In this document: positions 2,616 through 24,209 of the stretch, piece by piece
Layout: the number at the start of each line of letters is the position of its first letter
How positions within the stretch are numbered: the stretch's first letter is position 1
Source: Candidatus Oleincola secundus
Lineage (GTDB): Bacteria; Atribacterota; Phoenicimicrobiia; Phoenicimicrobiales; Stramentimicrobiaceae
NCBI GenBank assembly: GCA_018400815.1
Contig: JAGYLS010000020.1
Location: 1 to 25,494, forward strand
Length of the DNA stretch: 25,494 nt
Direction: 5' to 3'
Made by a program: the position numbers and the translations under genes
The notes under the pieces: model-generated
The model's input: the letters and a program-made list of their open reading frames with translations, nothing else
Told to the model about the DNA's origin: nothing
Databases searched by the model: none

Positions 2616-3026
2616 ATGAAATTATTAATGATTTATGCGGAAAATTTTGCCTATCAAACGAGGAGTAGAACATTAGAAACAGTTGAAGAATACCAGGAAG
2701 ATAAGCAAATAGAAAATGTTCTGGCTGGTTTTATACAAGTAGAAAAAGAAGATGAAGAAAAAATGGATAAAGTCGAGACTAAACTTATTAAAAATTTAAA
2801 ATGGGCTGCTAAAAAAAATAACACCAATTGCATTTTATTGCACTCTTTTGCTCATCTTTCTTTAAGTAAAGCTAATCCGGATAGTACCAAAAAAATATTT
2901 GATAATGCTGAAAAAAGGCTAAAAGATACCGGCTATGAAGTATATCAGACGCCCTTTGGTTATTTTTTAGATCTCGATTTAAAGGCACCAGGGAAGTCAC
3001 TAGCCAGAGTTTTTAAGGAGTTTTAA
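2616..3026 (+). CDS. Stand-alone archaeal-type threonyl-tRNA synthetase editing-domain protein (DTD-like fold)
   Basis: MKLLMIYAENFAY start, FIQVEKED, HSFAHLS and TPFGYF resemble the archaeal ThrRS N-terminal domain (YPxAHLS, APFGxYK); GAGG RBS. Confidence 0.75.
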   Translation: MKLLMIYAENFAYQTRSRTLETVEEYQEDKQIENVLAGFIQVEKEDEEKMDKVETKLIKNLKWAAKKNNTNCILLHSFAHLSLSKANPDSTKKIFDNAEKRLKDTGYEVYQTPFGYFLDLDLKAPGKSLARVFKEF

Positions 3027-4026: not shown

Positions 4027-5847
4027 TCAGGCCAAATTTTTACGGTTTTGATAACGTAAATGATGATCCAGAATCTTCTTTCTTAATCGAATACTCTCAG
4101 GGGTTATTTCCACCAATTCATCATCTTGAATAAACTCCAGGGCTTGCTCCAGGGAAAAATCCTGAGGTTTTTCTAAACGCAAGGCTTCATCAGAACCGCT
4201 TGCCCGCATATTGGTAACATGTTTTTTCTTGTTGACATTGACTTCCAGATCATTATCCCTTTTATTTTCTCCTACAATCATTCCCTGATATACTTTGGTT
4301 GCCGGTCCAATGAATAAATTTCCTCTACCCTGGGCATTATAAAGACCATAAGTGCTGGTAATTCCATCTTCAAAGGCAATTAATACTCCCCTGGAGCGTG
4401 AAGGAATATATCCCTTGTAAGGTTGATAGTCAAGGAAAAGATGGTGCATGATCCCTCTGCCTTTTGTTAAAGTAAGTAATTCACTGCGGAAGCCAATTAA
4501 CCCTCTTGCGGGTATTTGAAATTCAAGTCGAAGCTGATCAGAAGAAAAATCCTGCATATTTATTAAATCTGCTTTTCTAATACCGCACATACGCATTACA
4601 GTACTCAAGTATTCTTTTGGTATATCACAAGTCATGAGCTCTATTGGTTCATATTTTTTATCGTCAATATATCGGAAGATAACTTTTGGTTTGGACACCT
4701 GGAATTCATATCCTTCCCTGCGCATCTTTTCAATAAGGATAGAGAGATGCAACTCTCCTCTTCCGGAAACTCGGAAAGTATCCATTGATTCTGTTTCTTC
4801 TACCCGTAGGCTGACATTGGTGTCAATTTCTTTAAAAAGTCGTTCTCTCAGGTGTCGTGAGGTAACAAATTTACCTTGTTGACCGGCAAAAGGACTGTCA
4901 TTGACTTTAAAATCAATGGTAAGAGTAGGTTCATCAATACTAATTTTTGATAGAGCTTCCGGATTTTCCTGGTCGGCAATTGTTTCACCGATATTTGCTT
5001 CATCAATACCAGCCAATGCTATAATTTCCCCCGAATAAGCCTGCTTAGTCTCAATTCTTTCTAAACCTTCAAAAACATAAAGTTTGACTACTTTCCCTTT
5101 GACATGTCTTTTATCCCGCTTGATCAGCGTTACGCTTTCTCCCAACTCGATTTTTCCACGAATAATTAAACCCACAGCTATCTTTCCTACATAATCATCA
5201 TAATCCAGATTGGTTATTAGCATCTGTAAATCACTTTTATTGTCCACAATAGGAGAGGGAACATATTTTACAATAGTCGAAAAGAGCACCTCAAGATTTT
5301 TATCTAAAGAATCCGGTGAAACCCCGGCTAAACCTATTTGGGCTGAGGTGTAGATTACCGGAAAATCAATTTGTTCATCATTGGCACCCAATTCAATGAA
5401 CAAATCATAAATTTCATTTAGAACTTCTTTGGGACGTGCATTTGTGCGGTCTACTTTGTTAATCACCACAATAGGAATTAGGTTTAATTCCATGGATTTA
5501 CGTAAAACAAATCGGGTTTGTGGCATTGGTCCCTCAAAGGCATCAACAATTAAAAGAACTCCGTTAACCATTCTAAGAATTCTTTCCACTTCCCCTCCAA
5601 AATCTGCATGACCCGGAGTATCAACAATATTAATTTTAGTCTTATTCCAATAAACAGAGGCGTTTTTTGACAAAATGGTAATGCCCCTTTCCTGTTCCAT
5701 GTCATTAGAATCCATGATTCTCTCTTTTATTTTCTGGTTTTCCCGGAATGTTCCACTTTGCTTTAACATAGCATCAACCAGAGTTGTCTTGCCATGATCA
5801 ACATGTGCAATCAAGGCAATATTTCTTAAATCATTATATTTCATCAT
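4027..5847 (-). CDS. typA: Translational GTPase TypA/BipA
   Basis: [38 protein letters not shown] and C-terminal [16 protein letters not shown]. Confidence 0.97.
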
Positions 5848-5896
5848 TAATAACCTTTATTGAACGAAAATTCTGTAATCTGAAAAACAGGATAAA

Positions 5897-5925
5897 ATAT
5901 TATCACAATAAGTCTAATAAGTAAA
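5897..5925 (-). promoter_or_regulatory. Candidate sigma70 promoter for typA
   Basis: Minus strand TTTACT-N17-TAATAT with an extended TG. Confidence 0.45.
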
Positions 5926-6006
5926 GAAAATATTAGTTTAGGCATAGGTTGAGTAGAATCAATAGGGCATAAAATGGTATTTTGATAAAAATATGTCTTA
6001 TTTTTA

Positions 6007-6035
6007 TTGACAGAAGGGAATTTTTATGCTAACTT
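6007..6035 (+). promoter_or_regulatory. Sigma70 promoter of the aro operon leader
   Basis: TTGACA (6007-6012)-N17-TAACTT (6030-6035) with TG at 6027-6028, ~35 nt upstream of the leader ORF. Confidence 0.65.
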
Positions 6036-6069
6036 TATTTTTAACAATAAATCGAAAGGGTTAAACCAG

Positions 6070-6156
6070 ATGCTAAGGAAACAAAGCCAAGAAATATTTA
6101 ATTTTAACTATTATTATTTCTATTTTACTGGCGATGTTTATGCCTTAGTATCGTAA
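6070..6156 (+). CDS. Phe/Tyr-rich attenuator leader peptide, 28 aa: MLRKQSQEIFNFNYYYFYFTGDVYALVS
   Basis: ATG 6070 to TAA 6154-6156, preceded by AAAGGG. 8 of 10 consecutive codons (6097-6126) are Phe or Tyr; it lies directly upstream of the Phe/Tyr biosynthesis operon and overlaps an antiterminator arm. Confidence 0.88.
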   Translation: MLRKQSQEIFNFNYYYFYFTGDVYALVS

Positions 6157-6201
6157 CATAAACAGAAATTAGCAAATCAGATACCATAGGCATGAACATC
6201 G
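6132..6201 (+). promoter_or_regulatory. Antiterminator hairpin 1 (segments 2:3)
   Basis: CGATGTTTATGCCT (6132-6145) pairs with AGGCATGAACATCG (6188-6201), 14 bp with one G-U. GTATC (6148-6152) also pairs with GATAC (6180-6184). Excludes terminator 1. Confidence 0.85.
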
Positions 6202-6221
6202 AAGATGCCTATGGTATTTTT
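6181..6221 (+). terminator. Attenuator terminator 1 (segments 3:4)
   Basis: Perfect 13-bp stem ATACCATAGGCAT (6181-6193)/ATGCCTATGGTAT (6205-6217) with a T run at 6217-6221. Confidence 0.85.
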
Positions 6222-6250
6222 ATATGTAGCGACATATAAAGGACTATAGG
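6208..6250 (+). promoter_or_regulatory. Antiterminator hairpin 2 (segments 4:5)
   Basis: CCTATGGT-A-TTTTTATATGT (6208-6227) pairs with ACATATAAAGGACTATAGG (6232-6250): 19 bp, three G-U, one bulge, AGCG loop. Excludes both terminators. Confidence 0.75.
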
Positions 6251-6276
6251 TTTTTTATTACCTGTAGTCTTTTTTT
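6242..6276 (+). terminator. Attenuator terminator 2 (segments 5:6)
   Basis: 10-bp stem GACTATAGGT (6242-6251)/ACCTGTAGTC (6260-6269), one G-U, followed by T7 (6270-6276), ~50 nt before aroH. Confidence 0.8.
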
Positions 6277-6324
6277 ATATCTAGATTTAAATAAAGCAAA
6301 ACAAAATATCAGGGAGATAATTTT

Positions 6325-6711
6325 ATGACAGTAAGAGGTATAAGAGGTGCAACTACAGTTGATGCAAATAGCAAAGAATCTATTATAAGCAGAAGCAAAG
6401 AATTGTTGCTATTATTACAAAAAGCTAATCATTTTAATACAGAAGATATTGTCAGCATATTTTTTAGCATGACATCTGATTTAAACGCTGCCTTCCCGGC
6501 AGAAGCAGCAAGACAATTGGGCTGGAATAAAGTTCCTCTTTTTGGCATGCAAGAATCAGATGTAGAAGGTGGATTAGGAAAATGCATTAGAATTCTTATC
6601 CAAATTAACAGTAATAAAATACAGGATGAAATAAGACATTGTTATTTACACGAAGCCAAGAGGTTAAGGAGAGATTTAGTTGATATAGAAGGGAAGGAAG
6701 AGGAAAAATGA
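6325..6711 (+). CDS. aroH: Chorismate mutase, AroH class
   Basis: VRGIRGATTV, DLNAAFPAEAAR, KCIRILI and HCYLHEAKRLRRDL; GGGAG RBS. Confidence 0.95.
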   Translation: MTVRGIRGATTVDANSKESIISRSKELLLLLQKANHFNTEDIVSIFFSMTSDLNAAFPAEAARQLGWNKVPLFGMQESDVEGGLGKCIRILIQINSNKIQDEIRHCYLHEAKRLRRDLVDIEGKEEEK

Positions 6712-7742
6712 TTTTAGTAATGGACAGTCGCTCCAGCGATACAGACTTAAATACCATATCTGAAAAATTAAAAAATTTAGGTTTTGAATTGGAAGTTAGT
6801 AAAGGGAAAGAAAAAATAATAGTAGGAATAATTGGAGATACCAGAAAATTATTAAATTTTCCTTTTCATTCTTATCCAGGCGTAATCGATGTTTTGAAAG
6901 TTTTAAAACCCTACAAATTAGCTAGCAGAGAATTTAAAGAATTACCAACCGTTATTAAAATTGGTGATGCCTCTATTGGTGGAAAAGAAATAGCCCTTAT
7001 GGCGGGTCCTTGCTCTGTTGAAGATGAAGAACAAATTTATGAGGCTTCCCAGGGTTTAAGCAAGCTTGGAATAAAGATTCTGCGTGGAGGAGCATTTAAG
7101 CCCAGGAGTTCACCTTACAGCTTTCAGGGATTAGGCGAAAGAGGATTAAAAATGATGAGTGAAGCAGCAAAAAAATTTGGTTTACTGGTAATTACTGAAG
7201 TTATGTCTATTGAACAAATAGATATAATTGCACCTTTTGCAGATATCCTTCAAGTAGGTGCCAGAAATATGCAGAACTTCATGCTTTTAAAGGAATTAGG
7301 AAAAATCAAAAAACCAGTCATGTTAAAAAGAGGGCTGTCGTCGACTGTTGAAGAATTATTGCTATCAGCTGAGTATATTATGTCCGGTGGAAACAAAAAA
7401 GTTATCCTCTGTGAAAGAGGGATAAGGACATTTGAATCCTATACCCGCAATACCCTGGATCTAAGCGTAGTCCCGGCTATCAAGACATTAAGCCATTTGC
7501 CAATTATTGTCGATCCTAGTCATTCAACCGGTAGGAAGGAGTTGGTATGTCCTATGTCTAAAGCAGCCATAGCCGCAGGAGCTGATGGTCTGATTATCGA
7601 AGTTCATCCGAATCCAAAAATGGCTTTGTGTGATGGAGCACAATCGTTGGATTTAAATGACTTTGGAAATCTAATAAAAGAAACAGAATTGGTAGCAAAA
7701 GCCGTCGGAAGATCTTTAAATAATATCCAGGTCACTGTTTAG
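6708..7742 (+). CDS. aroF: DAHP synthase type I-beta with N-terminal ACT-like regulatory domain (copy 1)
   Basis: [47 protein letters not shown] and EVHPNP..ALCDGAQSL; ATGA overlap with aroH. Confidence 0.96.
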   Translation: MILVMDSRSSDTDLNTISEKLKNLGFELEVSKGKEKIIVGIIGDTRKLLNFPFHSYPGVIDVLKVLKPYKLASREFKELPTVIKIGDASIGGKEIALMAGPCSVEDEEQIYEASQGLSKLGIKILRGGAFKPRSSPYSFQGLGERGLKMMSEAAKKFGLLVITEVMSIEQIDIIAPFADILQVGARNMQNFMLLKELGKIKKPVMLKRGLSSTVEELLLSAEYIMSGGNKKVILCERGIRTFESYTRNTLDLSVVPAIKTLSHLPIIVDPSHSTGRKELVCPMSKAAIAAGADGLIIEVHPNPKMALCDGAQSLDLNDFGNLIKETELVAKAVGRSLNNIQVTV

Positions 7743-7823: not shown

Positions 7824-8861
7824 ATGGTTATAGTAATGGATGGTAAGGTAAATGAAGGTCATATTAATAATCTTAGTGACAAATTGAAAAGTATGGGTTT
7901 TAAGCTGCAGATGATTAAAGGTGAAGATAAAACCGTAATAGGTATTATCGGAGATACCAGAAAATTATTATCTTTCCCTTTTTATTCATATTATGGTGTA
8001 GTTGATGTATTAAAAGTCTCCAAACCTTACAAGCTTACCAGTAGAGAATTCAGAGAACTTTCAACCATTATACGGATTAACGAAGTAACCATTGGTGGTC
8101 AAGAAGCCGTCCTTATGGCTGGACCTTGTGCTGTTGAAAATGAAGAACAAATTGATATAATTGCCCGAAAAGTAAGTGCTATCGGCGCAAGGGTCTTACG
8201 TGGGGGAGCATTTAAGCCCAGAACTTCTCCTTACAGCTTTCAGGGATTAGGCGAAAGAGGACTTAAAATGATGAGTGAAGCAGCAAAAAAATATGGCCTG
8301 TTAGTCATTACTGAAGTGATGGCTATTGAGCAAATTGATATGATTGCCAATTATGCAGATATTATTCAAATAGGTGCCAGAAATATGCAGAATTTCATGC
8401 TCTTAAAAGAAATAGGGAAGATAAAAAAACCAGCCATGTTAAAAAGGGGAATGTCAGCTACTATAGAGGAATTTTTATTATCAGCAGAATATATCTTGTC
8501 AGGAGGAAATAAAGAAGTCATACTGTGTGAAAGAGGAATTCGTACTTTTGAAAATTATACGCGTAACACTTTAGATTTAAGTGCTATTCCGGCGATAAAA
8601 GAGTTAAGCCATTTACCGATAATTGTTGATCCGAGCCATGCCACCGGGAGAAAAGAGTTAGTCGGACCTATGTCTAAAGCAGCTATTGCAGCAGGAGCTG
8701 ACGGTTTAATTATTGAAGTTCATCCTAATCCGGAAGAGGCATTGATGATGGCGCACAATCCCTGGAATTAAGTGATTTTGGAACGTTTGATATCAGAATT
8801 GGAACAAGTAGCCCGTGCAGTCGGTAGGAAACATGCATCTTGGTTATACCTCTCTGTTTAG
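7824..8861 (+). CDS. aroF: DAHP synthase type I-beta with ACT-like domain (copy 2); 3' end broken by two indels in this sequence
   Basis: Same motifs as copy 1. After EEAL the expected [11 protein letters not shown] and [16 protein letters not shown] read across a -1 near 8745 and a +1 near 8780, ending at TAG 8859-8861. The ORF track stops at 8771. Confidence 0.9.
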
Positions 8862-8876
8862 AAAGGAACTCTTAAA

Positions 8877-10160
8877 TTGGATAGAGCTATTGAAGGAAAC
8901 AAAAAGGCCAATCCGAGGAAGCATAACAGTGCTCCAGTGATAAATCAATCACACATCGTGCGATTATTTTGAACTCTATTGCCAGGAGAATCAAAATCCG
9001 CTATTTTCTGGATGGTTTGGATTGCAGAACACCTTGTTATGTATGCAGGCTTTGGGTGCTAACATTGAAAAAGCAAGTCCTTTTTTATTAAAAATAAAAG
9101 GAAAAGGTCTTGACGGTTTAAAAGTACCAGAAAATGTTCTTGATGTGGGCAATCCGGAACTACTATGATTATTATCCGGTTGCTAGCTGGACAAAATTTT
9201 TGTAGTGTTTTAGATGGGGATGATTCAATAAGGAAAAGACCGATGAAAAGGATTATTCTACCACTCTCTAATGAATGGCCAAATAAAAGGATTATATCAT
9301 ACCAATTTTGCTCCTTTAAATATAATCGGTAAATCCCTGCAAGGAATTGACTATACCTTACCGGTAGCTAGTGCTCAGGTTAAATTGCTATTCTCCTGGC
9401 AGGCTTTATATGCCAAAGGAGAAACAGTATAAGGGAAAAACAGACCACAAGAGACCATACGGAACGAATGCTGGCCTTGATGAAGGCGAATATTCAATCT
9501 TTCCCTGATGATCAAAAATCCGGTTAATTCCGGGAAAAGAATTAAAGAGTATAGATATTGATATTCCGGGAGACATATCCTCAGCTGCCTATTTTATAGC
9601 AGCGGGATGTGTTAGGAAGGGTCAGAAATAATCATAAGAAATGTGGGAATAAATCCTACCCGACCGGGTTTTGGGAAGTATGAAAGAGATGTGGGGCTAA
9701 TATTCAAATGCTTAATCAAAAAGATATTTCTAACGAACCCAGGGCTGACATTCTTATTAAAGGGGCTTTATTGAAAGGGATTCAGATTGATAAAAAAATT
9801 ATTGCCAATATTATTGATGAATTGCCCTTAGTGGCAGTTATTGCAACCTTAGCGCAGGGTAGAACTATTGTAAAGGATGCACAGGAACTCAGGGTGAAAG
9901 AAAGTGACCGAATTAAAGCTATTGTAGAAGGATTATCCAGAATGGGGGCAAATATTATTGAAAATAATGATGGTTTTGAAATATCAGGACCGACTGGCTT
10001 GTCCGGAAATTCGGTAAACAGTTTTGGTGACCATCGAATTGCTATGTCTCTGGCCGTAGCGGCTTCCTATGCAGAAGGCAAAACAGTGATCCGGGAAACA
10101 GAATGTATAGATATTTCCTATCCGGATTTTATGCCTACTTATCAAAAAATAATGGAATAA
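8877..10160 (+). pseudogene. aroA: EPSP synthase (class II) with many frameshifts in the 5' two-thirds; probably an intact gene with sequence errors
   Basis: AAAGGA RBS and TTG at 8877. Motifs DKSITHRA, GN(S)GTT, RKRPMKR, PVASAQVK, RDHTERM, PGDISSAAYF and VGINPTR occur in shifting frames. The intact C-terminal ORF 9708-10160 has IDELP, ELRVKESDRI and GDHRIAM. Confidence 0.88.
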
Positions 10161-10177: not shown

Positions 10178-11047
10178 ATGAATCCTATGACTTTGACAAT
10201 TGGTTTGCTGGGTGAACATCTTGAAAATAGCCTTTCTCCATTGATACACCGCAATTTTATTTGTTATTATTCTTTAAATTATTGTTATTTGCCTTTTCAG
10301 ATAAAGACCGAAAATTTGGAAAAGGCAATATTTGGGGCAAAGGCATTGGGGATTCATGGGCTGAATGTCACAATACCTTTTAAAGAAAAGGCTATGGGGT
10401 TCATGGATAATATTGACCCGGCAGCAGAAACAATCGGAGCAATTAATACCATTGTCAGAAAAAATGAAAAGCTATATGGATATAATACAGACTGGAACGG
10501 TTTTAGGGAGCCACTGAAAAAAAAGATGAAGACTAAATTAATCAACAAGAGAGCGGTAGTTTTAGGGGCAGGTGGAGCCGCAAGGTCAGTTATCTTTGCC
10601 CTGGCAGAAGAAGGGTGTCCGGTGATATCAATCTTTAACAGAAGCAAAGATCGTGCCTTAGAGGTAAAAAGAAATTTCAAGAATATTTTCCCCCAATGTG
10701 AAATAAGAACATTCTCTTTTCAAAGAAAAAATTTGCAGGGAGAAATTGATAATGTAGATTTGCTCATAAATACCACTCCCCTGGGCAGCTGGTATTATCC
10801 GGGACAAAACCCCCTACCGGAAGGAATTAAACTTTCATCTAAAGCAATTGTCTATGATCTAATCTATTGTCCGGATAGAACTCCATTGCTGAGGTGGGCA
10901 GAAATAAACGGTAATAGGATATTAAATGGTAAAGAAATGCTGGTATATCAGGCAGCGGAGAGTTTTCATTTATGGACTGGTCTTTATCCTGATCAGGAAA
11001 TAATAACTAAAATATTGAGCAAGATAAGGAAAAAGGAAAATTTGTAA
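10178..11047 (+). CDS. aroE: Shikimate dehydrogenase
   Basis: SLSPLIH, GLNVTIPFKE, GAINT, GYNTD, GAGGAA, INTTPLG and MLVYQA. Confidence 0.96.
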   Translation: MNPMTLTIGLLGEHLENSLSPLIHRNFICYYSLNYCYLPFQIKTENLEKAIFGAKALGIHGLNVTIPFKEKAMGFMDNIDPAAETIGAINTIVRKNEKLYGYNTDWNGFREPLKKKMKTKLINKRAVVLGAGGAARSVIFALAEEGCPVISIFNRSKDRALEVKRNFKNIFPQCEIRTFSFQRKNLQGEIDNVDLLINTTPLGSWYYPGQNPLPEGIKLSSKAIVYDLIYCPDRTPLLRWAEINGNRILNGKEMLVYQAAESFHLWTGLYPDQEIITKILSKIRKKENL

Positions 11048-11067
11048 TTTTATAAAGAGGTATATCT

Positions 11068-12243
11068 ATGGTGTTACGTTTTTTAGATGCCGGAGAATCA
11101 CACGGAAAATGTCTGCTAGGTATTATTGAGGGGTTTCCTCAAGGATTCCCGTTAAGTGAAGAAAAGATTAATCAGGAATTGAAGAGAAGACAGGGGGGAT
11201 ATGGAAGAGGAGATCGGATGAAAATCGAACAGGACCGCATTGATATTTTGTCCGGGATAACTTCAGGTAAATCAATAGGCAGTCCCATAGGCTTAATGAT
11301 AAAGAATAAAGATTGGGAAAATAAGAATCCTAAAAATCAGGAAGAACTGACTATTCCTCGTCCCGGTCATGCTGATCTGGCCGGAGCAATCAAATATAGT
11401 TTGGATAATTATCGGTCAATACTTGAAAGAGCCAGCGCCAGAAAAACAGCGATGCGGGTAGCAATAGGTTCTGTCGGGCAGCAATTGCTGGATTATTTTT
11501 CAATAAATTCTTATAGCCATGTTCTAAGAATTGGCAGTATTTCAATTCATAATCAGATAGTAAAAGAAACAGAAAAAGAGGGAAAAATCAAAACAATCAA
11601 AGAAAAGATTAGCCGGTCGCCAGTTTACAGCTTAGACCCGGAAATTTCTGAAGAGATGTGTCGGGAAATTGATCAGGCAAAAAAGGAAGGAGATTCACTG
11701 GGAGGACAGTTTGAAATTGTAGTGAGAAATGTTCCGGCAGGGCTTGGAAGCCATGTGTTTTGGGATAGAAAAATTGATACGCGCATTGCCGGAGCTTTAA
11801 TGAGTATTCCCAGTGTAAAAGCAGTAGAAATAGGCGAAGGGATAAAAGGTTCAGAAAAAAAGGGCTCTAAAGTTCAAGATCCTATCTATTATCAAATGGG
11901 GCAAGAGAAAGATAATTACCCTGGTTATTATCGCAAGAAGAATTGGGCAGGTGGCATAGAGGGAGGAATAACCAACGGAGAGAATATTGTTGTACGTGTT
12001 TATGTAAAACCTATTCCTACTTTATTCAAACCTCTTCCATCAGTTGACATAAGAACCAAGAAAAAGACAAAGGCAAATTACCAAAGGTCAGATACCTGCG
12101 TTGTTCCGGCGGTTAGCGTCGTCGGGGAAGCAGTTGTGAATTGGGAGCTTGCAGTTGCCTTTACAGAAAAATTTAGCGGAGATTCTATGGATGAAATAGA
12201 GTCTAATTATAAGTGTTATCAGGAAAGGTCAAAAAAGTGCTGA
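11068..12243 (+). CDS. aroC: Chorismate synthase
   Basis: AGESHG, RRQGGYGRG, PRPGHADL, ERASAR, GGIEGGITNG and RSDTCVVP. Confidence 0.97.
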   Translation: MVLRFLDAGESHGKCLLGIIEGFPQGFPLSEEKINQELKRRQGGYGRGDRMKIEQDRIDILSGITSGKSIGSPIGLMIKNKDWENKNPKNQEELTIPRPGHADLAGAIKYSLDNYRSILERASARKTAMRVAIGSVGQQLLDYFSINSYSHVLRIGSISIHNQIVKETEKEGKIKTIKEKISRSPVYSLDPEISEEMCREIDQAKKEGDSLGGQFEIVVRNVPAGLGSHVFWDRKIDTRIAGALMSIPSVKAVEIGEGIKGSEKKGSKVQDPIYYQMGQEKDNYPGYYRKKNWAGGIEGGITNGENIVVRVYVKPIPTLFKPLPSVDIRTKKKTKANYQRSDTCVVPAVSVVGEAVVNWELAVAFTEKFSGDSMDEIESNYKCYQERSKKC

Positions 12244-12782
12244 GAAAGAATATTTTTATAACCGGATTTATGGGTACCGGTAAGAGCACGGTAGCCATGG
12301 CACTTGCCGATAAAATGAATAAAAAATTTACAGATATGGATATTTTGATTGAGAAGAAGGAAGGGAAGTCAATTACTGACATCTTTAACGATGAGGGAGA
12401 GGGAGAATCCTATTTTCGAAAAGTTGAAAGAGAAGTCCTGAAAGAAATTATAAAACAAAATGATTTAGTTATTGCAACCGGAGGAGGGAGTCTTCTTAAT
12501 GATGAAAATTATCAGTTAGCGCGGAAAAATAGTGCAATTATACTTCTTCAGGCAAAGCCGGAAGTTATATTTAAGCGATTAAAGGAAGATAGTGAACGTC
12601 CTCTATTGTCAGAAAAAAATAAATTGGATAGAATTAAAAGTCTGATGGAACAAAGAAAAAATAAATACAGCCGTTTTGAATATTCTGTTGATACATCTAA
12701 TCTTACTGTTGCACAGGTGGTTGATGAAATAATAAAAATATACCGGAGAGAATATGATGAAGACAATATCTCTGAAATTTGA
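12237..12782 (+). CDS. aroK: Shikimate kinase
   Basis: GFMGTGKST P-loop, GESYFR, ATGGG and RPLL; GTG at 12237 follows AGGAAAGG. Confidence 0.95.
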   Translation: MLRKNIFITGFMGTGKSTVAMALADKMNKKFTDMDILIEKKEGKSITDIFNDEGEGESYFRKVEREVLKEIIKQNDLVIATGGGSLLNDENYQLARKNSAIILLQAKPEVIFKRLKEDSERPLLSEKNKLDRIKSLMEQRKNKYSRFEYSVDTSNLTVAQVVDEIIKIYRREYDEDNISEI

Positions 12783-13881
12783 AAAAAAATATAATTGCAA
12801 TATGTTTATTGGAAAAGGCATTTTATCAGATATTGACACCTACCTTATCCCTCTATTGCCGGGAAAGCAGGTAGTATTAGTTACTAATTCGCTGATAAAA
12901 CAACTCTATGGTAATAAAATTGTTAAAATTCTTTCCCAAAAGGGCATTCTTGTTCATATTATTGAAGTTCCTGACGGAGAAAAAAGTAAATCTTTCTCTG
13001 GTGCTGAAAAAATTTATGATAAATTGTTGCAATTTAAATCAGATCGTTCTACTGCATTAGTTGCTCTGGGTGGTGGCGTGATTGGTGATTTGGCTGGGTT
13101 CGTCGCTGCTACCTTTATGAGAGGCATTCCTTTGGTGCATATTCCCACTACGCTTTTAGCTCAAATTGACAGCAGTATAGGAGGAAAAGTAGCCATTGAT
13201 CACTCAAGGGCAAAAAATATTGTAGGCAGTTTTTATCAGCCTATTGCTAACTTGGTTGATTCTGTAGTTTTAGAAAGTCTACCACTATCTCATTTGAAAA
13301 ACGGAATAGCTGAAGCCATCAAAATTGCTATTATTAGCTCTCCTTCATTTTTTAACTGGATAGATCAGCATATGGACCCTTTATTGCAGAAGGAGAAGGA
13401 TGTATTAGACTTTCTGGTAAGCCGGGCAGCACAATTAAAAATCAGTATTATTTTGCGGGATCCATGGGAAAGGAATCAGCGACATTTACTGAATTTAGGA
13501 CACAGTATAGGGCATGCACTGGAGACAGTGAGTGGTTATAGCTCTATTACCCATGGTGAGGCAGTTGCGATTGGCACTGTACTGGAAACTCGCATAGCTT
13601 ATCATAAGAAATTATGTAGCTGGGAAGATAAAGAAAAAATTGAAAATATTATCAGTAAATTAGATATTCTATCGGGTTTAAATCTATTGCAGATTAATCC
13701 GGAGGAATGCTGGGATACCATTCTTTTGGATAAAAAAAATAAAGATGGGAATATCCGCTTTGTTTTACCTGAGAAAATAGGAAAGGTTGAATTATTTCAG
13801 CCTATTCTTAAAGAAGATGTGGACTATGCTTTCAATTCCCTCAAGGAGAGTGAAAGAGAGGAGGAGAACTTTGAAAATTAG
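12754..13881 (+). CDS. aroB: 3-dehydroquinate synthase
   Basis: DGEKSKS, GGGVIGDLAGF, PTTLLAQIDSSIGGK, LNLGHSIGHALE, HGEAVAIG and DKK. Confidence 0.97.
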   Translation: MMKTISLKFEKKYNCNMFIGKGILSDIDTYLIPLLPGKQVVLVTNSLIKQLYGNKIVKILSQKGILVHIIEVPDGEKSKSFSGAEKIYDKLLQFKSDRSTALVALGGGVIGDLAGFVAATFMRGIPLVHIPTTLLAQIDSSIGGKVAIDHSRAKNIVGSFYQPIANLVDSVVLESLPLSHLKNGIAEAIKIAIISSPSFFNWIDQHMDPLLQKEKDVLDFLVSRAAQLKISIILRDPWERNQRHLLNLGHSIGHALETVSGYSSITHGEAVAIGTVLETRIAYHKKLCSWEDKEKIENIISKLDILSGLNLLQINPEECWDTILLDKKNKDGNIRFVLPEKIGKVELFQPILKEDVDYAFNSLKESEREEENFEN

Positions 13882-14323
13882 TGTTATTCATGGCCCGAAT
13901 TTAAATCGTTTGGGACAGAGAAAAAAAGAACATTATGGGGTGCTTACTCTGGCAAAAATAAACAACAGTTTAGAAAAAAAGGCTTCTAAAATGAATATCC
14001 AGTTGGAAATTATGCAATCAAACCACGAAGGAGAAATCATTGATTTTATTCAGATGGTTTCAGAAAAGACAGATGGCATCATCATTAATCCGGGGGCTTT
14101 TACTCATTACAGTTATGCCATAAGGGATGCTTTAGAGGATTGTTTGCTTCCGGTTATTGAAGTGCATTTATCTAATATTTTTGCCCGTGAAGAATTTCGT
14201 GCCAGGTCAGTCACAGCCCAGGCTTGTGCTGGCCAGATTGCCGGACTGGGATACCAAGGCTATTTATTGGCAATTGAAGGACTTCAGTCTTTAATTAAAG
14301 AGCGCAAACCTAAAAAAACTTAA
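13871..14323 (+). CDS. aroQ: Type II 3-dehydroquinate dehydratase
   Basis: HGPNLNRLG, QSNHEG, NPGAFTHYSYAIRDA and EVHLSNIFAREEFR; TTG at 13871 follows GAGGAG. Confidence 0.96.
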   Translation: MKISVIHGPNLNRLGQRKKEHYGVLTLAKINNSLEKKASKMNIQLEIMQSNHEGEIIDFIQMVSEKTDGIIINPGAFTHYSYAIRDALEDCLLPVIEVHLSNIFAREEFRARSVTAQACAGQIAGLGYQGYLLAIEGLQSLIKERKPKKT

Positions 14324-14337
14324 TGAGGAGGCTTAGA

Positions 14338-15228
14338 ATGAGTGAAGAAAGTGAATTTACCGGGTTTAAAAAGATTACTATAATCGGTTGCGGATTAATT
14401 GGCGGCTCCATTGGCTTGGCATTAAAGAAAAACTCCTATTCCGGTGAAATTACAGGTATTGACCGGAAAGAAGTAATTGAAAAAGCAATTTATTCGGGTG
14501 CTATTGATTGGGGAACTGAAGAAATAGAAAAAGGGGTAAAAAATGCAAGTATGGTTATTCTAGCTACCCCGGTTCAGGAAATTATAAGATTACTGTCCAA
14601 AATAAAACCGTTTTTACCGGAATATTGTTTGATTACTGATACCGGGAGTACAAAAAAGGAAATTATTAAAGAGGCATGGAAAGTATATTCAGATAAATAT
14701 GATTTTATAGGCGGTCACCCTATGGCTGGTTTGGAAAAGGGTGGAATAGAATACGCTGATCCATATTTATTTTCCGGGAAACCCTACATTACAGTTGTCG
14801 GAAGAGAAAATACTAATTTAGCTGGTTTAAAAATGTCTACTTTTTTAAATTTCATTAATGCCATGGAGATAAGATTGAATGCTTCAGAGCATGATCGTAT
14901 TATTGCCCTGGTCAGTCATGTTCCACAATTGATTGCCGTTATTATGACCAACCTGTTCGGATCTCTGGTGCAGGAAGGTTATGATGAAAAATGCCTCAAA
15001 ATTGGCGGGAATGCATTCAACGAAATGACCAGAGTTGCCAGCAGCCCTTTTTCCATGTGGAAAGATATCTATCAAACGAACAGTAAATGGACAATAAATT
15101 ATATTAATGATTTAGAAGATATGTTAGGTCAGGTTAAAGAAAAAATTGCAAAAAATCCGCATAAGTTGGAAGAAGATTTTAAAAAAGCCAGTTATTATAA
15201 AGAAAAAATGTCACAGAAGACCGAATGA
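14338..15228 (+). CDS. tyrA: Prephenate/arogenate dehydrogenase
   Basis: GCGLIGGS Rossmann motif, TDTGSTK, GGHPMAG, EHDRIIALVSHVPQ and TRVASS; ATG at 14338 follows GAGGAGG. Confidence 0.94.
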   Translation: MSEESEFTGFKKITIIGCGLIGGSIGLALKKNSYSGEITGIDRKEVIEKAIYSGAIDWGTEEIEKGVKNASMVILATPVQEIIRLLSKIKPFLPEYCLITDTGSTKKEIIKEAWKVYSDKYDFIGGHPMAGLEKGGIEYADPYLFSGKPYITVVGRENTNLAGLKMSTFLNFINAMEIRLNASEHDRIIALVSHVPQLIAVIMTNLFGSLVQEGYDEKCLKIGGNAFNEMTRVASSPFSMWKDIYQTNSKWTINYINDLEDMLGQVKEKIAKNPHKLEEDFKKASYYKEKMSQKTE

Positions 15229-15285
15229 TTTTATGATAGGTAAGCTATTAAAAAGATAATTAACAATTAAAAGAGGTATGATTTT

Positions 15286-16191
15286 ATGGATGAAAAGGAT
15301 GATTATCACTATAAAAAAAATAAAACAGTAGCGCTACAGGGAGAAATTGGTTCATTCAGTGAAATGGCTGCCTTGCAATATTTTGGTTCTGCTGCAGAGA
15401 TGTTATCCTGCAGTAGTTTTAACCAGGTTAGTGAAACAGTTAAACAGGGCAAGGCTGATTATGCTATTTTACCAATTGAGAATTCTCAGACAGGAGGAAT
15501 TAACAATGTGCATGATTTATTATTGAGCGAAAATCTATTTGCAATCGGTGAAGTTATATTAAAAATTGAACATTGTTTAATTGCTCATCAGGACACTAAA
15601 CCGGAGCAAATTGAAAAAATTTATTCTCATCCACAGGCGCTAGCTCAATGTGAAAGATACTTGATAAAAAATTTCTCTCACTGTCAAATTATTCCAGTAT
15701 ATGATACGGCAGGGAGTGTCAAACAGATTAAGGAATCCAGGGAGTTAAAAGCAGCAGGAATTGCCAGTCGAAGAGCTGCTACTTATTATGAGATGAATAT
15801 CTTAGAAAATAGTATTGAAGACAATCCTTCCAATTATACACGTTTTTTAGTTTTTTACCCTGAAATACTGACCAATAAATTAAATAACAAAACATCTATT
15901 ATTTTTGCGGTAGTCAGTGTTCCCGGAGCTATCCATAAATGCTTAAGAGAATTTGCAATTCGTGGCATTAACTTAAGTAGATTAGAATCAAGGCCTAGCA
16001 GGATGAAACCATGGGAATATATTTTTTATATGGATTTTGAGAATGGGCTGCAGGAAAGTGTTACCCAGGAAGCATTGAAGGCACTAAGAGAGTTTACTAC
16101 TTTTATTAAAATTATTGGTACATATCAATCACATTCAAGTACGCTTGATTCTGCCCAAAGGCACCTTCGGGAATTGACTAAAAACAAATAG
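15286..16191 (+). CDS. pheA: Prephenate dehydratase with C-terminal ACT domain
   Basis: QGEIGSFSEMAA, PIENS, SHPQALAQC, NYTRF and INLSRLESRP; no fused chorismate mutase domain. Confidence 0.95.
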   Translation: MDEKDDYHYKKNKTVALQGEIGSFSEMAALQYFGSAAEMLSCSSFNQVSETVKQGKADYAILPIENSQTGGINNVHDLLLSENLFAIGEVILKIEHCLIAHQDTKPEQIEKIYSHPQALAQCERYLIKNFSHCQIIPVYDTAGSVKQIKESRELKAAGIASRRAATYYEMNILENSIEDNPSNYTRFLVFYPEILTNKLNNKTSIIFAVVSVPGAIHKCLREFAIRGINLSRLESRPSRMKPWEYIFYMDFENGLQESVTQEALKALREFTTFIKIIGTYQSHSSTLDSAQRHLRELTKNK

Positions 16192-20679: not shown

Positions 20680-20708
20680 TTGACATGATTTTTAATTAGT
20701 GATATAAT
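20680..20708 (+). promoter_or_regulatory. Consensus sigma70 promoter of the yerC-ABC-hisC operon
   Basis: TTGACA (20680-20685)-N17-TATAAT (20703-20708) with an extended TG. Confidence 0.85.
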
Positions 20709-20733
20709 TTCTTAAAACATTAAACCATTAATT

Positions 20734-20749
20734 ATTTAACATATTAAAG
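20734..20749. promoter_or_regulatory. Candidate YerC/HisR operator
   Basis: Palindrome TTTAA-CATA-TTAAA (TTTA-N6-TAAAG) ~26 nt downstream of the -10 box. Confidence 0.45.
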
Positions 20750-20828
20750 ATATCTTGTAATTGATGGTTTTTTATAATTGTAATTGAATTAAATATCTCC
20801 AAAAATATTGGTGATTGGAGGCAAAGTC

Positions 20829-21134
20829 ATGGATCATTATCCTCGCTGGAAAAACGAAATGACTGATCAATTATTTAAAGCGATACTGAGTTTAGATAAT
20901 ATTGATGAATGTTATCAGTTTTTTGAAGACGTAGCAACTATAAATGAAATTAAAGAGCTTAGTCAACGGCTGGAAGTTGCCCGGATGCTTAGTGAAGGTT
21001 TTATCTATGAGGATATTGTACAGAAAACCGGGGCCAGCTCTGCAACAGTCAGTCGGGTAAAAAAGTGTTTAAACTATGGTGCTGATGGCTATCAGCTAAT
21101 ACTGAAAAAAATTAAACAAAAGAATAAACTATAA
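20829..21134 (+). CDS. yerC: YerC/YecD-family TrpR-like repressor (HisR-like)
   Basis: DQLFKAILSL, ECYQFFEDVATINE, SQRLEVARML and TGASSATVSRVKKCLNYG; ATG at 20829 follows GGAGG. Confidence 0.92.
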   Translation: MDHYPRWKNEMTDQLFKAILSLDNIDECYQFFEDVATINEIKELSQRLEVARMLSEGFIYEDIVQKTGASSATVSRVKKCLNYGADGYQLILKKIKQKNKL

Positions 21135-21156
21135 ATAAAATAATGGAGGAACTTTG

Positions 21157-21930
21157 ATGAATAGAAATAAACGAATCATTTCAGCTTTACTTTGTTCTGT
21201 ATTTTTCTTTATGTTGTTAGGGCTACCTGGTATTTCTGCAGAAAAAGAACTCTATATTAACGGAATTGATGCAGATTACCCCCCACATGCCTACATTGAT
21301 GAACAAGGTAACCCGGCAGGTTTTGATGTAGAAGCATTGGATTGGATTGCTGAGGAAATGGGATTTGAGGTAACTCATCAGCCTACTGCCTGGGATGGCA
21401 TTGTATCAAGTCTTTTAGCAAAAAAAATTGATATGGTTTTTTCCGGCATGAGCATTACCGAAGAGAGAAAAGAAAAAGTGAATTTTACAATGCCTTATTG
21501 GTCAATTGACCAGGCAATAAGTGTGAGAAACGATTCTGATTTAAATGCTATTGAAATATTCATGGGTGATTATACAGTAGGAACCCAACGCGGATGCACT
21601 GCTGCTATGTGGATTGAAGATAATTTAATCAATCAGGATCTGTTTCCCAAAGATAGTCTCAAACTGTATGAAGGATTTTCTTTGGCAGTACAGGATCTTT
21701 TAAATGGAAGAGTTGATGCTGCAATGATGGATGATGTAATGGTGGAAGACGCAATTCGCAAAGGAATGGATATTAAAGTTATAGGGACTATAAAAACTGG
21801 CGAAGAGTATGGTGTAGCAGTTAGAAAAGAAGACACAGAACTTTTGGAATTACTCAATGAAGGAATTAATCGTATTATGAATTCACCGAAATGGGATGAA
21901 TTAAAGGCCAAATATTTCCAGGCTCAGTAA
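21157..21930 (+). CDS. Polar amino-acid ABC transporter substrate-binding protein (family 3)
   Basis: Signal peptide (ISA-EK), GIDADYPP, GFDVE, AWDGIV, SGMSITEERK and YGVAVRK; GGAGGA RBS. Confidence 0.93.
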   Translation: MNRNKRIISALLCSVFFFMLLGLPGISAEKELYINGIDADYPPHAYIDEQGNPAGFDVEALDWIAEEMGFEVTHQPTAWDGIVSSLLAKKIDMVFSGMSITEERKEKVNFTMPYWSIDQAISVRNDSDLNAIEIFMGDYTVGTQRGCTAAMWIEDNLINQDLFPKDSLKLYEGFSLAVQDLLNGRVDAAMMDDVMVEDAIRKGMDIKVIGTIKTGEEYGVAVRKEDTELLELLNEGINRIMNSPKWDELKAKYFQAQ

Positions 21931-21981
21931 ATTCCAAATAAAAAAATTATATAAAAATATCAAAATAGAATTAATGAATGA

Positions 21982-22013
21982 CGGGGATGTAAACTAAGAA
22001 GTTTATATCCCCG
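21982..22013 (+). terminator. Intercistronic stem-loop after the binding-protein gene (stabiliser or partial terminator)
   Basis: 14-bp stem CGGGGATGTAAACT/AGTTTATATCCCCG, one G-U, AAGA loop, weak U tail. Confidence 0.65.
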
Positions 22014-22081
22014 GTTTCATGTAAATGTAATGCTAGTTAAAAATTGTTAAATAGCTAAACAAAAGGGATAAGATATAAGTT

Positions 22082-22747
22082 ATGGAAAATTTTATTGTTA
22101 TTTATCAGGCCCTTCCTTTTTTACTTCAGGGCATAATAACAACCTTAGGCTTAGTGCTAAGTGCGCTTTTTTTAGGTTTTATTATAGGTGTGCCTTTATC
22201 GGTAGGACAGGTTTTTGGCTCTTCTTGGACGAAAAAATTTATCGGTATTTATATCTGGTTTTTTAGGGGTTTACCAATACTGGTTTTATTATTTCTTTTT
22301 TATTATGGTTTATTTAACATGATAGGATTGAATTTATCTGCTTTTGTGGCAGCGGTATTAGTATTGGGTTTGCGCAGCTCTGCCTATCAGGCACAGATTT
22401 TTAGAGGAAGTATCCAGTCCTTGGGACAGGGGCAACTGTTGGCAGCCCAATCTCTTGGAATGAGTACAGGCAAGGCAATATGGAATATCATTTTACCGCA
22501 AGCATTAAGGCTGTCAATTCCCGGTTGGTCTAATGAATACCCGGCAATGTTAACAGAATCTGCCGTAACTTATGCTATTGGCGTGATGGAGGTGTTGACT
22601 CGGGGAAACTTTATTGCATCCAGAACCTATAAGCCTATGCCTATTTACCTGACCTGCGCAATAATTTTTTTAATCTTGTCCTATTCAGGAATGAAAATAT
22701 TACATATTTTAGAGGAGAAGGTCAGAATTCCCGGTTTTGAGGAATGA
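22082..22747 (+). CDS. Polar amino-acid ABC transporter permease
   Basis: FFRGLPILV, SAYQAQIFRGSI, GQLLAAQSLGM and ILPQALR. Confidence 0.93.
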   Translation: MENFIVIYQALPFLLQGIITTLGLVLSALFLGFIIGVPLSVGQVFGSSWTKKFIGIYIWFFRGLPILVLLFLFYYGLFNMIGLNLSAFVAAVLVLGLRSSAYQAQIFRGSIQSLGQGQLLAAQSLGMSTGKAIWNIILPQALRLSIPGWSNEYPAMLTESAVTYAIGVMEVLTRGNFIASRTYKPMPIYLTCAIIFLILSYSGMKILHILEEKVRIPGFEE

Positions 22748-23538
22748 AAGGACCAGAAGGAATGAATCAAAAAAAAGAATTAATATTACGAATTAAAGAT
22801 ATTCATAAATCCTTTGGAGGAAAAGAGGTTTTAAAAGGAATCTCTTTTGATGTTTACAAAGGAGAAACAAAGGTAATCATCGGGCCCTCGGGGATGGGGA
22901 AAAGTACCCTTTTAAGATGTATAAACCAGCTTACTTTTCCTGACCAGGGCACGATATGGTTAAGAGACCAGGAGGTAACTCACCATAATTTAAGAGAGAT
23001 TAATCTTTTCCGTCAAAAAATAGGTATGGTTTTTCAGGATTTTAATCTTTTTGACCACCTTGATGCTGTAAGAAATGTTGAAATTGCCCTGATTAAAGTA
23101 AAAGGAATGAAAAAAGAGGAAGCCAGAGAAAAAGCTATGCATGAGTTAAAGAAAGTTGGCTTAGGAAAACAGGCATCGCTTTATCCGGCTCAACTATCCG
23201 GTGGCCAAAAACAGCGGGTTTCAATTGCCCGGGCATTGGCTATGGATCCGGAAGTCATGCTTTTTGACGAACCTACCTCTGCACTTGATCCGGAACTCAT
23301 TGGTGAGGTACTAGGTGTCATGCAAAAATTAGCCAGAGAAGGCATGACTATGGTTGTGATTACCCATGAAATGGGTTTTGCGCGTTCAGTGGCTGATGAA
23401 ATAATTTTTTTGGAAAAGGGCAAGCTATTGGAAAGCGGACCACCGGAAATATTATTTTACCAGCCTAAATATGAGCGAACCCGGAGATTTTTATTCAAAT
23501 TAACCGAGTTATATGGTGATTTAAATGGGAAAAAATAA
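22744..23538 (+). CDS. Polar amino-acid ABC transporter ATP-binding protein (GlnQ/HisP family)
   Basis: GPSGMGKST, LSGGQKQR, FDEPTSALDPE and THEMGFA. Confidence 0.95.
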   Translation: MKGPEGMNQKKELILRIKDIHKSFGGKEVLKGISFDVYKGETKVIIGPSGMGKSTLLRCINQLTFPDQGTIWLRDQEVTHHNLREINLFRQKIGMVFQDFNLFDHLDAVRNVEIALIKVKGMKKEEAREKAMHELKKVGLGKQASLYPAQLSGGQKQRVSIARALAMDPEVMLFDEPTSALDPELIGEVLGVMQKLAREGMTMVVITHEMGFARSVADEIIFLEKGKLLESGPPEILFYQPKYERTRRFLFKLTELYGDLNGKK

Positions 23539-24209
23539 TGATTAACCTAGACTTTTTTTTAGAAATATTATTTCCTTCTTTATTAGAAGGATTAATAATG
23601 ACTATGCAATTGATTTGCTGGTCAATCCCAATTGGATTAGTAATGGGAGTTATTATTGCTATTGGCCGGGTTTATGGTAATGTGCTGGTATCTTTTTTCA
23701 GTAAAGCATACATTATATTTTTTAGAGGGACACCTTTGCTGATTTTACTTTTTATTTTGTATTATGGTTTCCCTTCTATTGGTATTTATTTATCACCCTT
23801 TGTTGCTGCTGTTATCGGGTTTGTTCTTTGCAGTAGCTCTTATCATGCAGAATATATTCGTGGCGCTATTCAATCTGTAAGAAGCGGACAGGTATTGGCA
23901 GCCCAGGCACTGGGAATGAGTAAATTGAGTGCCGTTTTTAATATTGTTCTTCCCCAGGCCTTACGTAGAGCCATCCCCGGTTGCTCTAATGAGATTATCT
24001 ATCTAATAAAATATTCTTCATTAGCCTTCATGGTAACCTGTATTGAATTAACGGGGGCAGGCAAGATTGTAGCCTCTCGATATTTTACTTATACCGAAGT
24101 TTTTTTAGTAATCGGAGCTATCTATCTAATCATTGTTTCCCTGGCTACTAAACTTTTAAATATTTTAGAAGAAAGGGCGTCTTTCCCCGGATGGGAGAAT
24201 AGAAAGTAA
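23538..24209 (+). CDS. Polar amino-acid ABC transporter permease
   Basis: FFRGTPLL, SYHAEYIRGAI, GQVLAAQALGM, VLPQALR and IKYSSL. Confidence 0.93.
   Translation: MINLDFFLEILFPSLLEGLIMTMQLICWSIPIGLVMGVIIAIGRVYGNVLVSFFSKAYIIFFRGTPLLILLFILYYGFPSIGIYLSPFVAAVIGFVLCSSSYHAEYIRGAIQSVRSGQVLAAQALGMSKLSAVFNIVLPQALRRAIPGCSNEIIYLIKYSSLAFMVTCIELTGAGKIVASRYFTYTEVFLVIGAIYLIIVSLATKLLNILEERASFPGWENRK

Follow-up and report, generated by a model that had tools for sequence, protein, structure and literature searches.

A leader ORF rich in Phe and Tyr codons

The locus raises the question whether a short ORF upstream of a run of shikimate pathway genes is a leader peptide that controls these genes, and whether such a leader would respond to Phe, to Tyr or to both. 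We analysed it in a stretch of 25,494 nucleotides from Candidatus Oleincola secundus (Atribacterota), hereafter called the window. A preliminary description of the window had reported a 28-codon ORF with four Phe and four Tyr codons within ten codons and no Trp, located between a TTGACA promoter and aroH. Both the ORF and its position were confirmed, and the elements are the following:

6007..6035, plus strand: sigma-70-type promoter, from sequence; same spacing in homologous aroH loci
6054..6060, plus strand: Shine-Dalgarno-like purine run, 9 nt 5' of the leader start; similar motifs in homologues
6070..6156, plus strand: leader peptide ORF, ATG 6070, TAA 6156, 28 codons (28 aa); MLRKQSQEIFNFNYYYFYFTGDVYALVS
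6097..6126, plus strand: control codons 10-19 (4 Phe, 4 Tyr, 2 Asn), with codon-periodic conservation in homologues

Codons 10-19 encode the core FNFNYYYFYF, and a fifth Tyr is found at codon 24. The promoter is composed of the -35 element TTGACA (6007-6012), a 17-nt spacer and an extended -10 element (TG at 6027-6028 and TAACTT at 6030-6035), from which transcription would start near position 6042. It was absent from the output of a consensus promoter scan, and its -10 element matches at only 3 of 6 positions. The arrangement of TTGACA, 17 nt and TA.. recurs in 26 of 30 aroH loci. These 26 comprise every aroH locus with both the leader core and sufficient upstream DNA; the remaining 4 are without the core or cut.

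The leader region has a G+C content of about 31%. Chance occurrence was judged against 1192 intergenic ORFs of 10-45 aa with an SD-like motif from the same genome. The leader ORF ranked first in this set and was the sole one with 8 Phe or Tyr codons in 10, one other ORF having 7. The leader DNA is identical in contigs from two DNA runs of different studies, one of which is possibly the source of the window. No Pfam or NCBIfam match was obtained for the leader peptide, a profile search with the leader detected no further copy in the genome, and a downstream hairpin screen of the 1192 small ORFs yielded four weak, unconvincing candidates for other amino-acid leader peptides.

Genes downstream of the leader

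The leader is followed by eleven genes in the same orientation (aroH, aroF1, aroF2, aroA, aroE, aroC, aroK, aroB, aroQ, tyrA and pheA), with intergenic gaps of at most 81 nt, two of which were estimated across assembly errors:

6325..6711, plus strand: aroH, chorismate mutase, first gene after the attenuator (TIGR01796 over cut-off)
6708..7742, plus strand: aroF1, DAHP synthase carrying a regulatory domain at its N-terminus; the residue at T. maritima position 31 is Ser
7824..8860 (end approximate), plus strand: aroF2, the second of the DAHP synthases, with Ile at position 31 and a garbled C-terminus
8875..10160 (start approximate), plus strand: aroA, EPSP synthase (C-terminal 150 aa matches TIGR01356)
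10178..14323, plus strand: aroE, aroC, aroK, aroB and aroQ (NCBIfam)
14323..16191, plus strand: tyrA and pheA (NCBIfam)

The tyrA product belongs to the prephenate dehydrogenase family but scored below the curated cut-offs, while pheA, a prephenate dehydratase, scored over its cut-off. Among the terminators listed, no convincing internal one was found in the aroH-pheA run, beyond which glnS lies. A cluster of small indels at about 8740-9700 garbles the C-terminus of aroF2 and aroA. Contigs of the runs X1 and X3 differ from the window aroA by 26 and 21 gaps, and at a locus of the same genus (L033) both genes are intact (aroF2 344 aa, aroA 431 aa). Since the frameshifts are lacking in two DNA runs and L033 is intact, we regard them as assembly errors, single-base indels in the window assembly only, and rejected the reading of aroF2 and aroA as pseudogenes.

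In most of family f2 tyrA is the last gene of the operon, with smpB after it, and pheA is in most of these genomes located between ilvC-like and leuA-like genes (names from sequence; L159-L180); in G025 and G034 pheA is fused to tyrA. The leader chassis was not found before pheA of family f2 in 22 loci, nor before trp operons of relatives in 13 loci, and there were no Rfam matches within 1.5 kb of pheA in 17 f2 loci. We did not find trpA and tyrS in the genome, but as it is 86% complete their absence is not established.

Two further observations concern the window outside this run. At 20680-25237 a perfect TTGACA-17-TATAAT promoter precedes a YerC/HisR gene, an amino-acid ABC transporter and hisC, and a TTTA-N6-TAAA site near 20736 fits the HisR core consensus (as given in the available text of PMC9413887); this is likely an autoregulated HisR operon. 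At 2616-3026 a free-standing 136-aa protein resembles the archaeal threonyl-tRNA synthetase editing domain.

Six RNA segments with two mutually exclusive folds

The region between the leader start and aroH can be divided into six segments, and a terminator scan identified an intrinsic terminator at 6238-6276, 5' of aroH:

6069..6089, plus strand: segment A, from the start codon through codon 7; partner of B if the leader is untranslated (MFE)
6129..6152, plus strand: segment B, codons 20-28; a relay arm with A and C as alternative partners
6180..6201, plus strand: segment C; pairs with D (protector hairpin) or B
6205..6226, plus strand: segment D, left arm of the antiterminator D:E
6233..6251, plus strand: segment E, shared by the antiterminator (as its right arm) and the terminator (as its left arm)
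6260..6276, plus strand: segment F (6260-6273) and U-tract; terminator E:F, stem 6238-6273 (terminator scan)

The duplex energies are -22.3 kcal/mol for A:B and -25.5 kcal/mol for B:C. The last codons of the leader had been thought to form the left arm of the antiterminator, a view that has to be revised: B, which contains them, pairs with C and frees D, and the antiterminator proper is D:E. From the U-rich 3' part of D, the C:D hairpin may be a pause site or a weak first terminator.

Covariation was assessed in an alignment of 33 leaders. In the terminating fold (C:D and E:F) 99.2% of the cells are paired and 11 of 22 pairs show two-sided changes (0/500 shuffles), with 8 of 14 pairs in the C:D helix (99.1% paired) and 3 of 7 in the E:F core. 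The read-through fold (B:C and D:E) is paired in 96.3% of cells with two-sided changes in 7 of 34 pairs (6/500 shuffles); here the D:E core contributes 3 of 7 pairs (99.1% paired), and the 14-bp B:C helix, 97.8% paired, varies on one side only, with no two-sided change. One chain of columns through C, D, E and F switches jointly between the families, reading C-G-C-G (15) versus T-A-T-A/G (16). At least 8 of 9 pairs of the outer A:B helix are paired in 30 of the 33 leaders, a count biased by the placement of A by best complementarity, and three inner pairs are swapped between the families. All pairings of both sets, A:B, C:D and E:F versus B:C and D:E, are conserved, and the element is, as judged from the alignment, a six-segment attenuator.

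Conservation in Atribacterota and metagenomes

We found aroH in 45 of 61 genomes (36 of 52 within the order). The preliminary description had proposed aligning the regions upstream of aroH in related genomes, and this proved informative: the leader core is present in 28 of the 30 aroH loci first examined, in two Atribacterota families, and the F/Y-rich ORF is in frame in 27 of the 28 core-bearing loci. The exception, L010, has a 1-nt deletion just after the control codons, with a stop within a few bases of the usual place. L023, one of the 30, is cut by a contig end, and in L012 an insertion sequence lies between aroH and the leader, which persists upstream. The leader is also present in 6 of 6 additional loci of the order. 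Of the 320 core codons in 32 homologues (L010 excluded), 243 specify Phe or Tyr and 318 end in T or C. The homologues show synonymous third-position changes and middle-base swaps between Phe and Tyr, and indels in the control block are multiples of three, L010 excepted. Most homologues also have Asn codons scattered through the control block, 44 among the 320 core codons; Ser, Asp or Gly sometimes takes their place.

Metagenomes were scanned with a pattern of segments B and C only, omitting the control codons. The scan gave at least 118 loci, one of which was discarded as too short, leaving 117 scored. Among the matches listed, 115 of 117 carry 6 or more Phe or Tyr codons in the 10 in-frame upstream codons, none of the 117 has a stop in those 10 codons, and a start is found in 116, although these locus counts overstate independence because the homologues, metagenome loci included, are close kin. 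The next gene among these matches is aroH in 78 cases and aroF in 12, with 27 loci ending too early, so that every next gene that could be reached is aroH or aroF. In 34 genomes from other families of the phylum there was no full-length leader match (short hits only, E > 0.001), and among the loci listed aroH is there mostly internal to a gene cluster.

In most f2 leaders segment A is made up of the SD and a GTG start, not of the first codons. At f2 loci such as L022 an out-of-frame ATG directly after the -10 element is the start of a 10-codon ORF overlapping the leader, which itself begins with GTG. Sequence comparison suggests that this ATG is homologous to the f1 start and that the start site may have shifted in evolution.

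Single loci showed further variants. At L120 (G008:C2, about 62850-63330) a decayed leader with lost start and degraded C is followed by pheA fragments and glnS, and the operon appears to have been deleted between leader and pheA. At L129 (G027:C6) an IS-like transposase lies between terminator and aroH, and at L125 (G003:C156) the leader is located directly before aroE. Relatives of a genome titled Zixiibacteriota (L035, L036, L138-L140, L142, L146, L148, L149, L152, L155, L157) carry Tyr-rich leader ORFs and a GC-rich terminator before aroH-aroF-tyrA, which look, by appearance only, like a simpler architecture than the Atribacterota chassis. At several other loci of that comparison aroH seems to stand directly after trpA-like DNA, with no leader.

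Switch model and proposed mechanism

The dependence of the folds on ribosome position was modelled by folding no more than the stretch between the ribosome front and the end of E. For A-site positions from codon 10 to codon 19 the antiterminator formed with P(D:E) of 0.93-1.0, and from codon 20 on P(D:E) was at most 0.11, so that the switch flips at codon 19/20. Phe codons 10, 12 and 17 and Tyr codons 14-16 all lie inside the fully effective zone. At the equivalents of codons 13-17, P(D:E) exceeded 0.5 in all 33 homologues and from codon 21 in none of the 33; the late codons 18 and 19 are marginal (24 and 11 of 33). With B shuffled, P(D:E) exceeded 0.5 in only 1 of 100 trials. This antiterminator behaviour depends on the model and is lost once pairing around the ribosome is permitted: A:B then re-formed at codons 14-17 (P 0.95-0.98) and the model terminated. 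It has to be assumed that this closure is prevented sterically or by a second ribosome waiting on A. In the full-length RNA E:F wins at equilibrium whatever the ribosome position, and read-through must therefore be kinetic. For the untranslated leader P(C:D) was 0.98 in the window, i.e. terminating; at equilibrium only 18 of 33 homologues terminated.

According to the mechanism we propose, RNA polymerase would start near 6042 and a ribosome would load at 6070. With plentiful charged Phe- and Tyr-tRNA the ribosome would pass codons 10-19, reach the stop and cover B, so that C:D and E:F form and transcription would end at the U-tract at about 6270-6276. If either tRNA is scarce, the ribosome would stall in codons 10-19 and leave B free to capture C; with B:C formed, the D:E antiterminator would block the terminator, and the genes from aro to tyrA and pheA would be transcribed. 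A leader without translation probably folds A:B and would terminate by default.

The preliminary description had proposed ribosome-mediated attenuation, and this gains support from the conserved leader, the predicted exclusive folds and the covariation. Those features of the attenuator class that sequence and folding can show are present, namely a conserved ORF with SD and start, a run of end-product codons, a terminator and an exclusive antiterminator. We have high confidence that the leader element is real and conserved and that it is very probably functional; on the alignment and the folding model, a ribosome-mediated six-segment transcription attenuator of the above kind is, with a similarly high degree of confidence, the best explanation. 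What we infer are translation and stalling, the order of folding, a response to both Phe and Tyr, and a single transcript for all 11 genes; for translation, stalling and the amino-acid response we argue by analogy to the trp, phe and his paradigms.

RNA libraries gave contigs over the region that come from relatives and show neither ends nor levels: in run X15 one contig covers 6065-6246 (depth 8.7) and another 6220-6368 (3.1), and in run X16 the depth is 31.5 in the bin 6102-6252 and 0 in the next. One RNA-library contig crosses the terminator, although contigs cannot show ends or levels.

The ratio of Phe to Tyr codons and the type of DAHP synthase

Aligned with the T. maritima enzyme, the DAHP synthases have either Ser or Ile at the position of Ser31. 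In the T. maritima enzyme we take this Ser31 to bind the hydroxyl of Tyr. The literature searched, including the available text of PMC9529685 and PMC10464499, contained no paper supporting a role of Ser31/His29 in T. maritima DAHP synthase.

We scored the codon mix at 43 of 44 loci (L016 was not located). Leaders before units with only Ile31 enzymes have more Phe than Tyr codons in 7 of 8 cases and equal numbers in 1. Before Ser31-only units Phe is below Tyr in 17 of 25 leaders, equal in 7 and above in 1. Units with both enzymes, like the window, show a 4:4 mix in 4 of 4 cases. In f2 operons that end in tyrA-smpB with pheA elsewhere, Phe is below Tyr in 11 of 12 leaders, the Ile31 case L010 being counted apart from these 12. 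Among the metagenome matches listed, 5 of 5 distinct leaders of lone Ile31 genes are Phe-rich, and leaders of aroH-Ser31 loci are Tyr-rich in 36 of 44 and Phe-rich in 4, in a set where Ile31 is confounded with the lone-aroF context. In a quick tree the Ile31 enzymes are spread over several separate branches, one pair being nested among Ser31 relatives of the same operon type; it leaves about four contrasts, all in the predicted direction and too few for statistics.

The same RNA chassis was also found before other genes. Phe-rich leaders precede a stand-alone Ile31 aroF at L121, L122, L123, L124 and L126, and Tyr-only leaders (6-8 Tyr) precede a TrpX-like ABC importer, probably a Tyr importer, at L127 and L128. 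The occurrence of Tyr-only and Phe-rich runs on one chassis suggests selection on each codon type separately. From the sequences compared, the codon mix apparently follows the downstream genes, Phe-rich leaders going with Ile31, Tyr-rich leaders with Ser31 and pheA elsewhere, and 4:4 leaders with both enzymes. The earlier expectation that the codon content fits the outputs of the operon is supported, the 4:4 mix standing before both DAHP synthases.

A further-reaching reading is that the chassis is portable and that its Phe:Tyr ratio has been retuned repeatedly, in parallel, to match the feedback specificity of the controlled DAHP synthase (Ile or Ser at position 31) and the position of pheA; we consider the chances for and against this to be evenly balanced. 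If the retuning is true, the 4:4 leader would be a true OR-gate for Phe- and Tyr-tRNA, the gate in the window would govern a pair of Phe- and Tyr-inhibited isoenzymes, and Tyr-tRNA sensing by a leader peptide would become directly testable in a genome that otherwise uses T-boxes. The leader set yields predictions of which ligands an ABC importer and so far uncharacterised DAHP synthases recognise. The family amounts to a natural experiment in which one RNA chassis stands before different genes with control blocks that are Phe-rich, Tyr-rich, Tyr-only or balanced, and it makes the question of Tyr-responsive leaders testable with simple reporters.

Alternative explanations

The same attenuator might work with only one amino acid, Phe or Tyr, as the signal usable in vivo, the other codons being passengers. 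Dual sensing is not readable from codons alone, because in the aroR leader of C. glutamicum (Phe-Tyr-Phe) limitation of Phe was answered and limitation of Tyr was not (available text of PMC11802643), and stalling at codons 18-19 is marginal in the homologues (24/33 and 11/33 above 0.5). We nevertheless consider a single signal unlikely, as Phe codons 10, 12 and 17 and Tyr codons 14-16 share the fully effective zone, and the Tyr-only runs before the ABC importer and the Phe-rich runs before lone aroF suggest separate selection. A sensor of nascent peptide or free amino acid similar to TnaC would have the leader tail D-V-Y-A-L-(V/T)-S arrest the ribosome near the stop at high free Tyr or Phe. 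The tail is nearly invariant over about 150 loci (metagenome matches listed included), but its bases are constrained by pairing with A and C, and the frameshift in L010 alters the tail amino acids yet keeps the DNA and the stop position. Runs of regulatory codons moreover suit control by tRNA charging, and arrest by the tail appears very improbable to us.

We give equally little credence to an RNA switch that binds a ligand or a protein, like the orphan trpB motif, with the ORF being incidental. Such a switch is suggested by C:D and E:F scoring 42.2 bits against the Rfam trpB model RF04312, a motif for which the readings as riboswitch, protein-binding RNA or attenuator were left open by its authors (available text of PMC11109978). 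The score is however below the gathering score of 59, the trpB family was found in 0 of 86 genomes of the phylum, no T-box was found at the leader site, and codon-periodic conservation, SD with start, and Phe/Tyr retuning require translation. Chance, i.e. AT-rich DNA with a constitutive terminator, might be invoked for a region of about 31% GC, as Phe, Tyr and Asn codons are themselves AT-rich. Considering the first rank of the leader among 1192 small ORFs, the 115 of 117 metagenome matches listed that are in frame and stop-free with a pattern blind to the control codons, and the covariation in both folds, we count chance as already refuted.

Comparison with known systems

The preliminary description knew of no characterised precedent for a Tyr and Phe leader before an operon of this kind, which is too strong. 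C. glutamicum aroR, a Phe-Tyr-Phe leader before aroF that responds to Phe and not to Tyr (Neshat et al. 2014, according to the review PMC11802643), resembles the window in having Phe and Tyr leader codons before a DAHP synthase operon and ribosome-mediated transcription attenuation. Compared by description, not sequence, aroR has three control codons and a response to Phe only, whereas the window leader, in Atribacterota, has eight and heads the whole shikimate, tyrA and pheA run. A table for Shewanella labels aroF 'attenuator sensing tyr-tRNA' (PMC2659441, available in part); no experimentally shown Tyr-responsive leader peptide was found in the literature searched. In searches of mainly open-access literature (main texts, e.g. 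PMC4007540 and PMC2965389, available in part) no paper on Atribacterota leaders was found.

The T-box (RF00230) also reads tRNA charging and controls termination. It reads one tRNA directly, whereas the element in the window would use the ribosome and could read two. There was no Rfam match to a T-box at the leader site, though the model matches 16 times elsewhere in the genome, with 3 matches over cut-off; examples stand before pheS, leuS, hisS, ilvB and a TrpB-like gene. T-boxes over cut-off were found in 4 of 12 trp loci of relatives scanned. For a task that requires two tRNAs to be read together, a T-box-rich genome would employ the ribosome as sensor. Two of the T-box loci showed additional matches: at L190 (G000:C132) a T-box and a second partial T-box match precede the TrpB-like gene, and at L191 (G000:C130) the T-box before ilvB has a guanidine-I/ykkC-type match after it that stays under the threshold (51 of 63 bits).

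The his attenuator also has six segments, with A:B, C:D and E:F formed against B:C and D:E, and its segment A overlaps the control codons. It uses His codons. In the window A is located at the start codon, upstream of the control codons. The likeness to hisL of the Salmonella/E. coli his operon lies in leader-peptide attenuation (available text of PMC3896937). E. coli pheL-pheA shares with the window an aromatic codon run, an intrinsic terminator and an antiterminator that forms on stalling, but is Phe-only with four segments (1:2, 2:3, 3:4), as opposed to six segments and mixed codons (available text of PMC3082878). The Rfam Phe, His, Trp, Thr and Leu leader families gave no match at E up to 10 in 5700-6500 of the window, and trpB, with a score under its cut-off, was the sole Rfam hit. 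The trpB motif RF04312 likewise has two hairpins, the second being a terminator, an antiterminator in the right shoulder of the first hairpin and amino-acid genes downstream; unlike in the window, no leader ORF is described in the available text (PMC11109978). Membership in this motif was rejected on the score and the phylum count given above.

The mechanism itself is classical, akin to attenuation at pheL and hisL, and specialists would find nothing surprising in it; with the locus described here, classical leader-peptide attenuation would extend to JS1-type Atribacterota.
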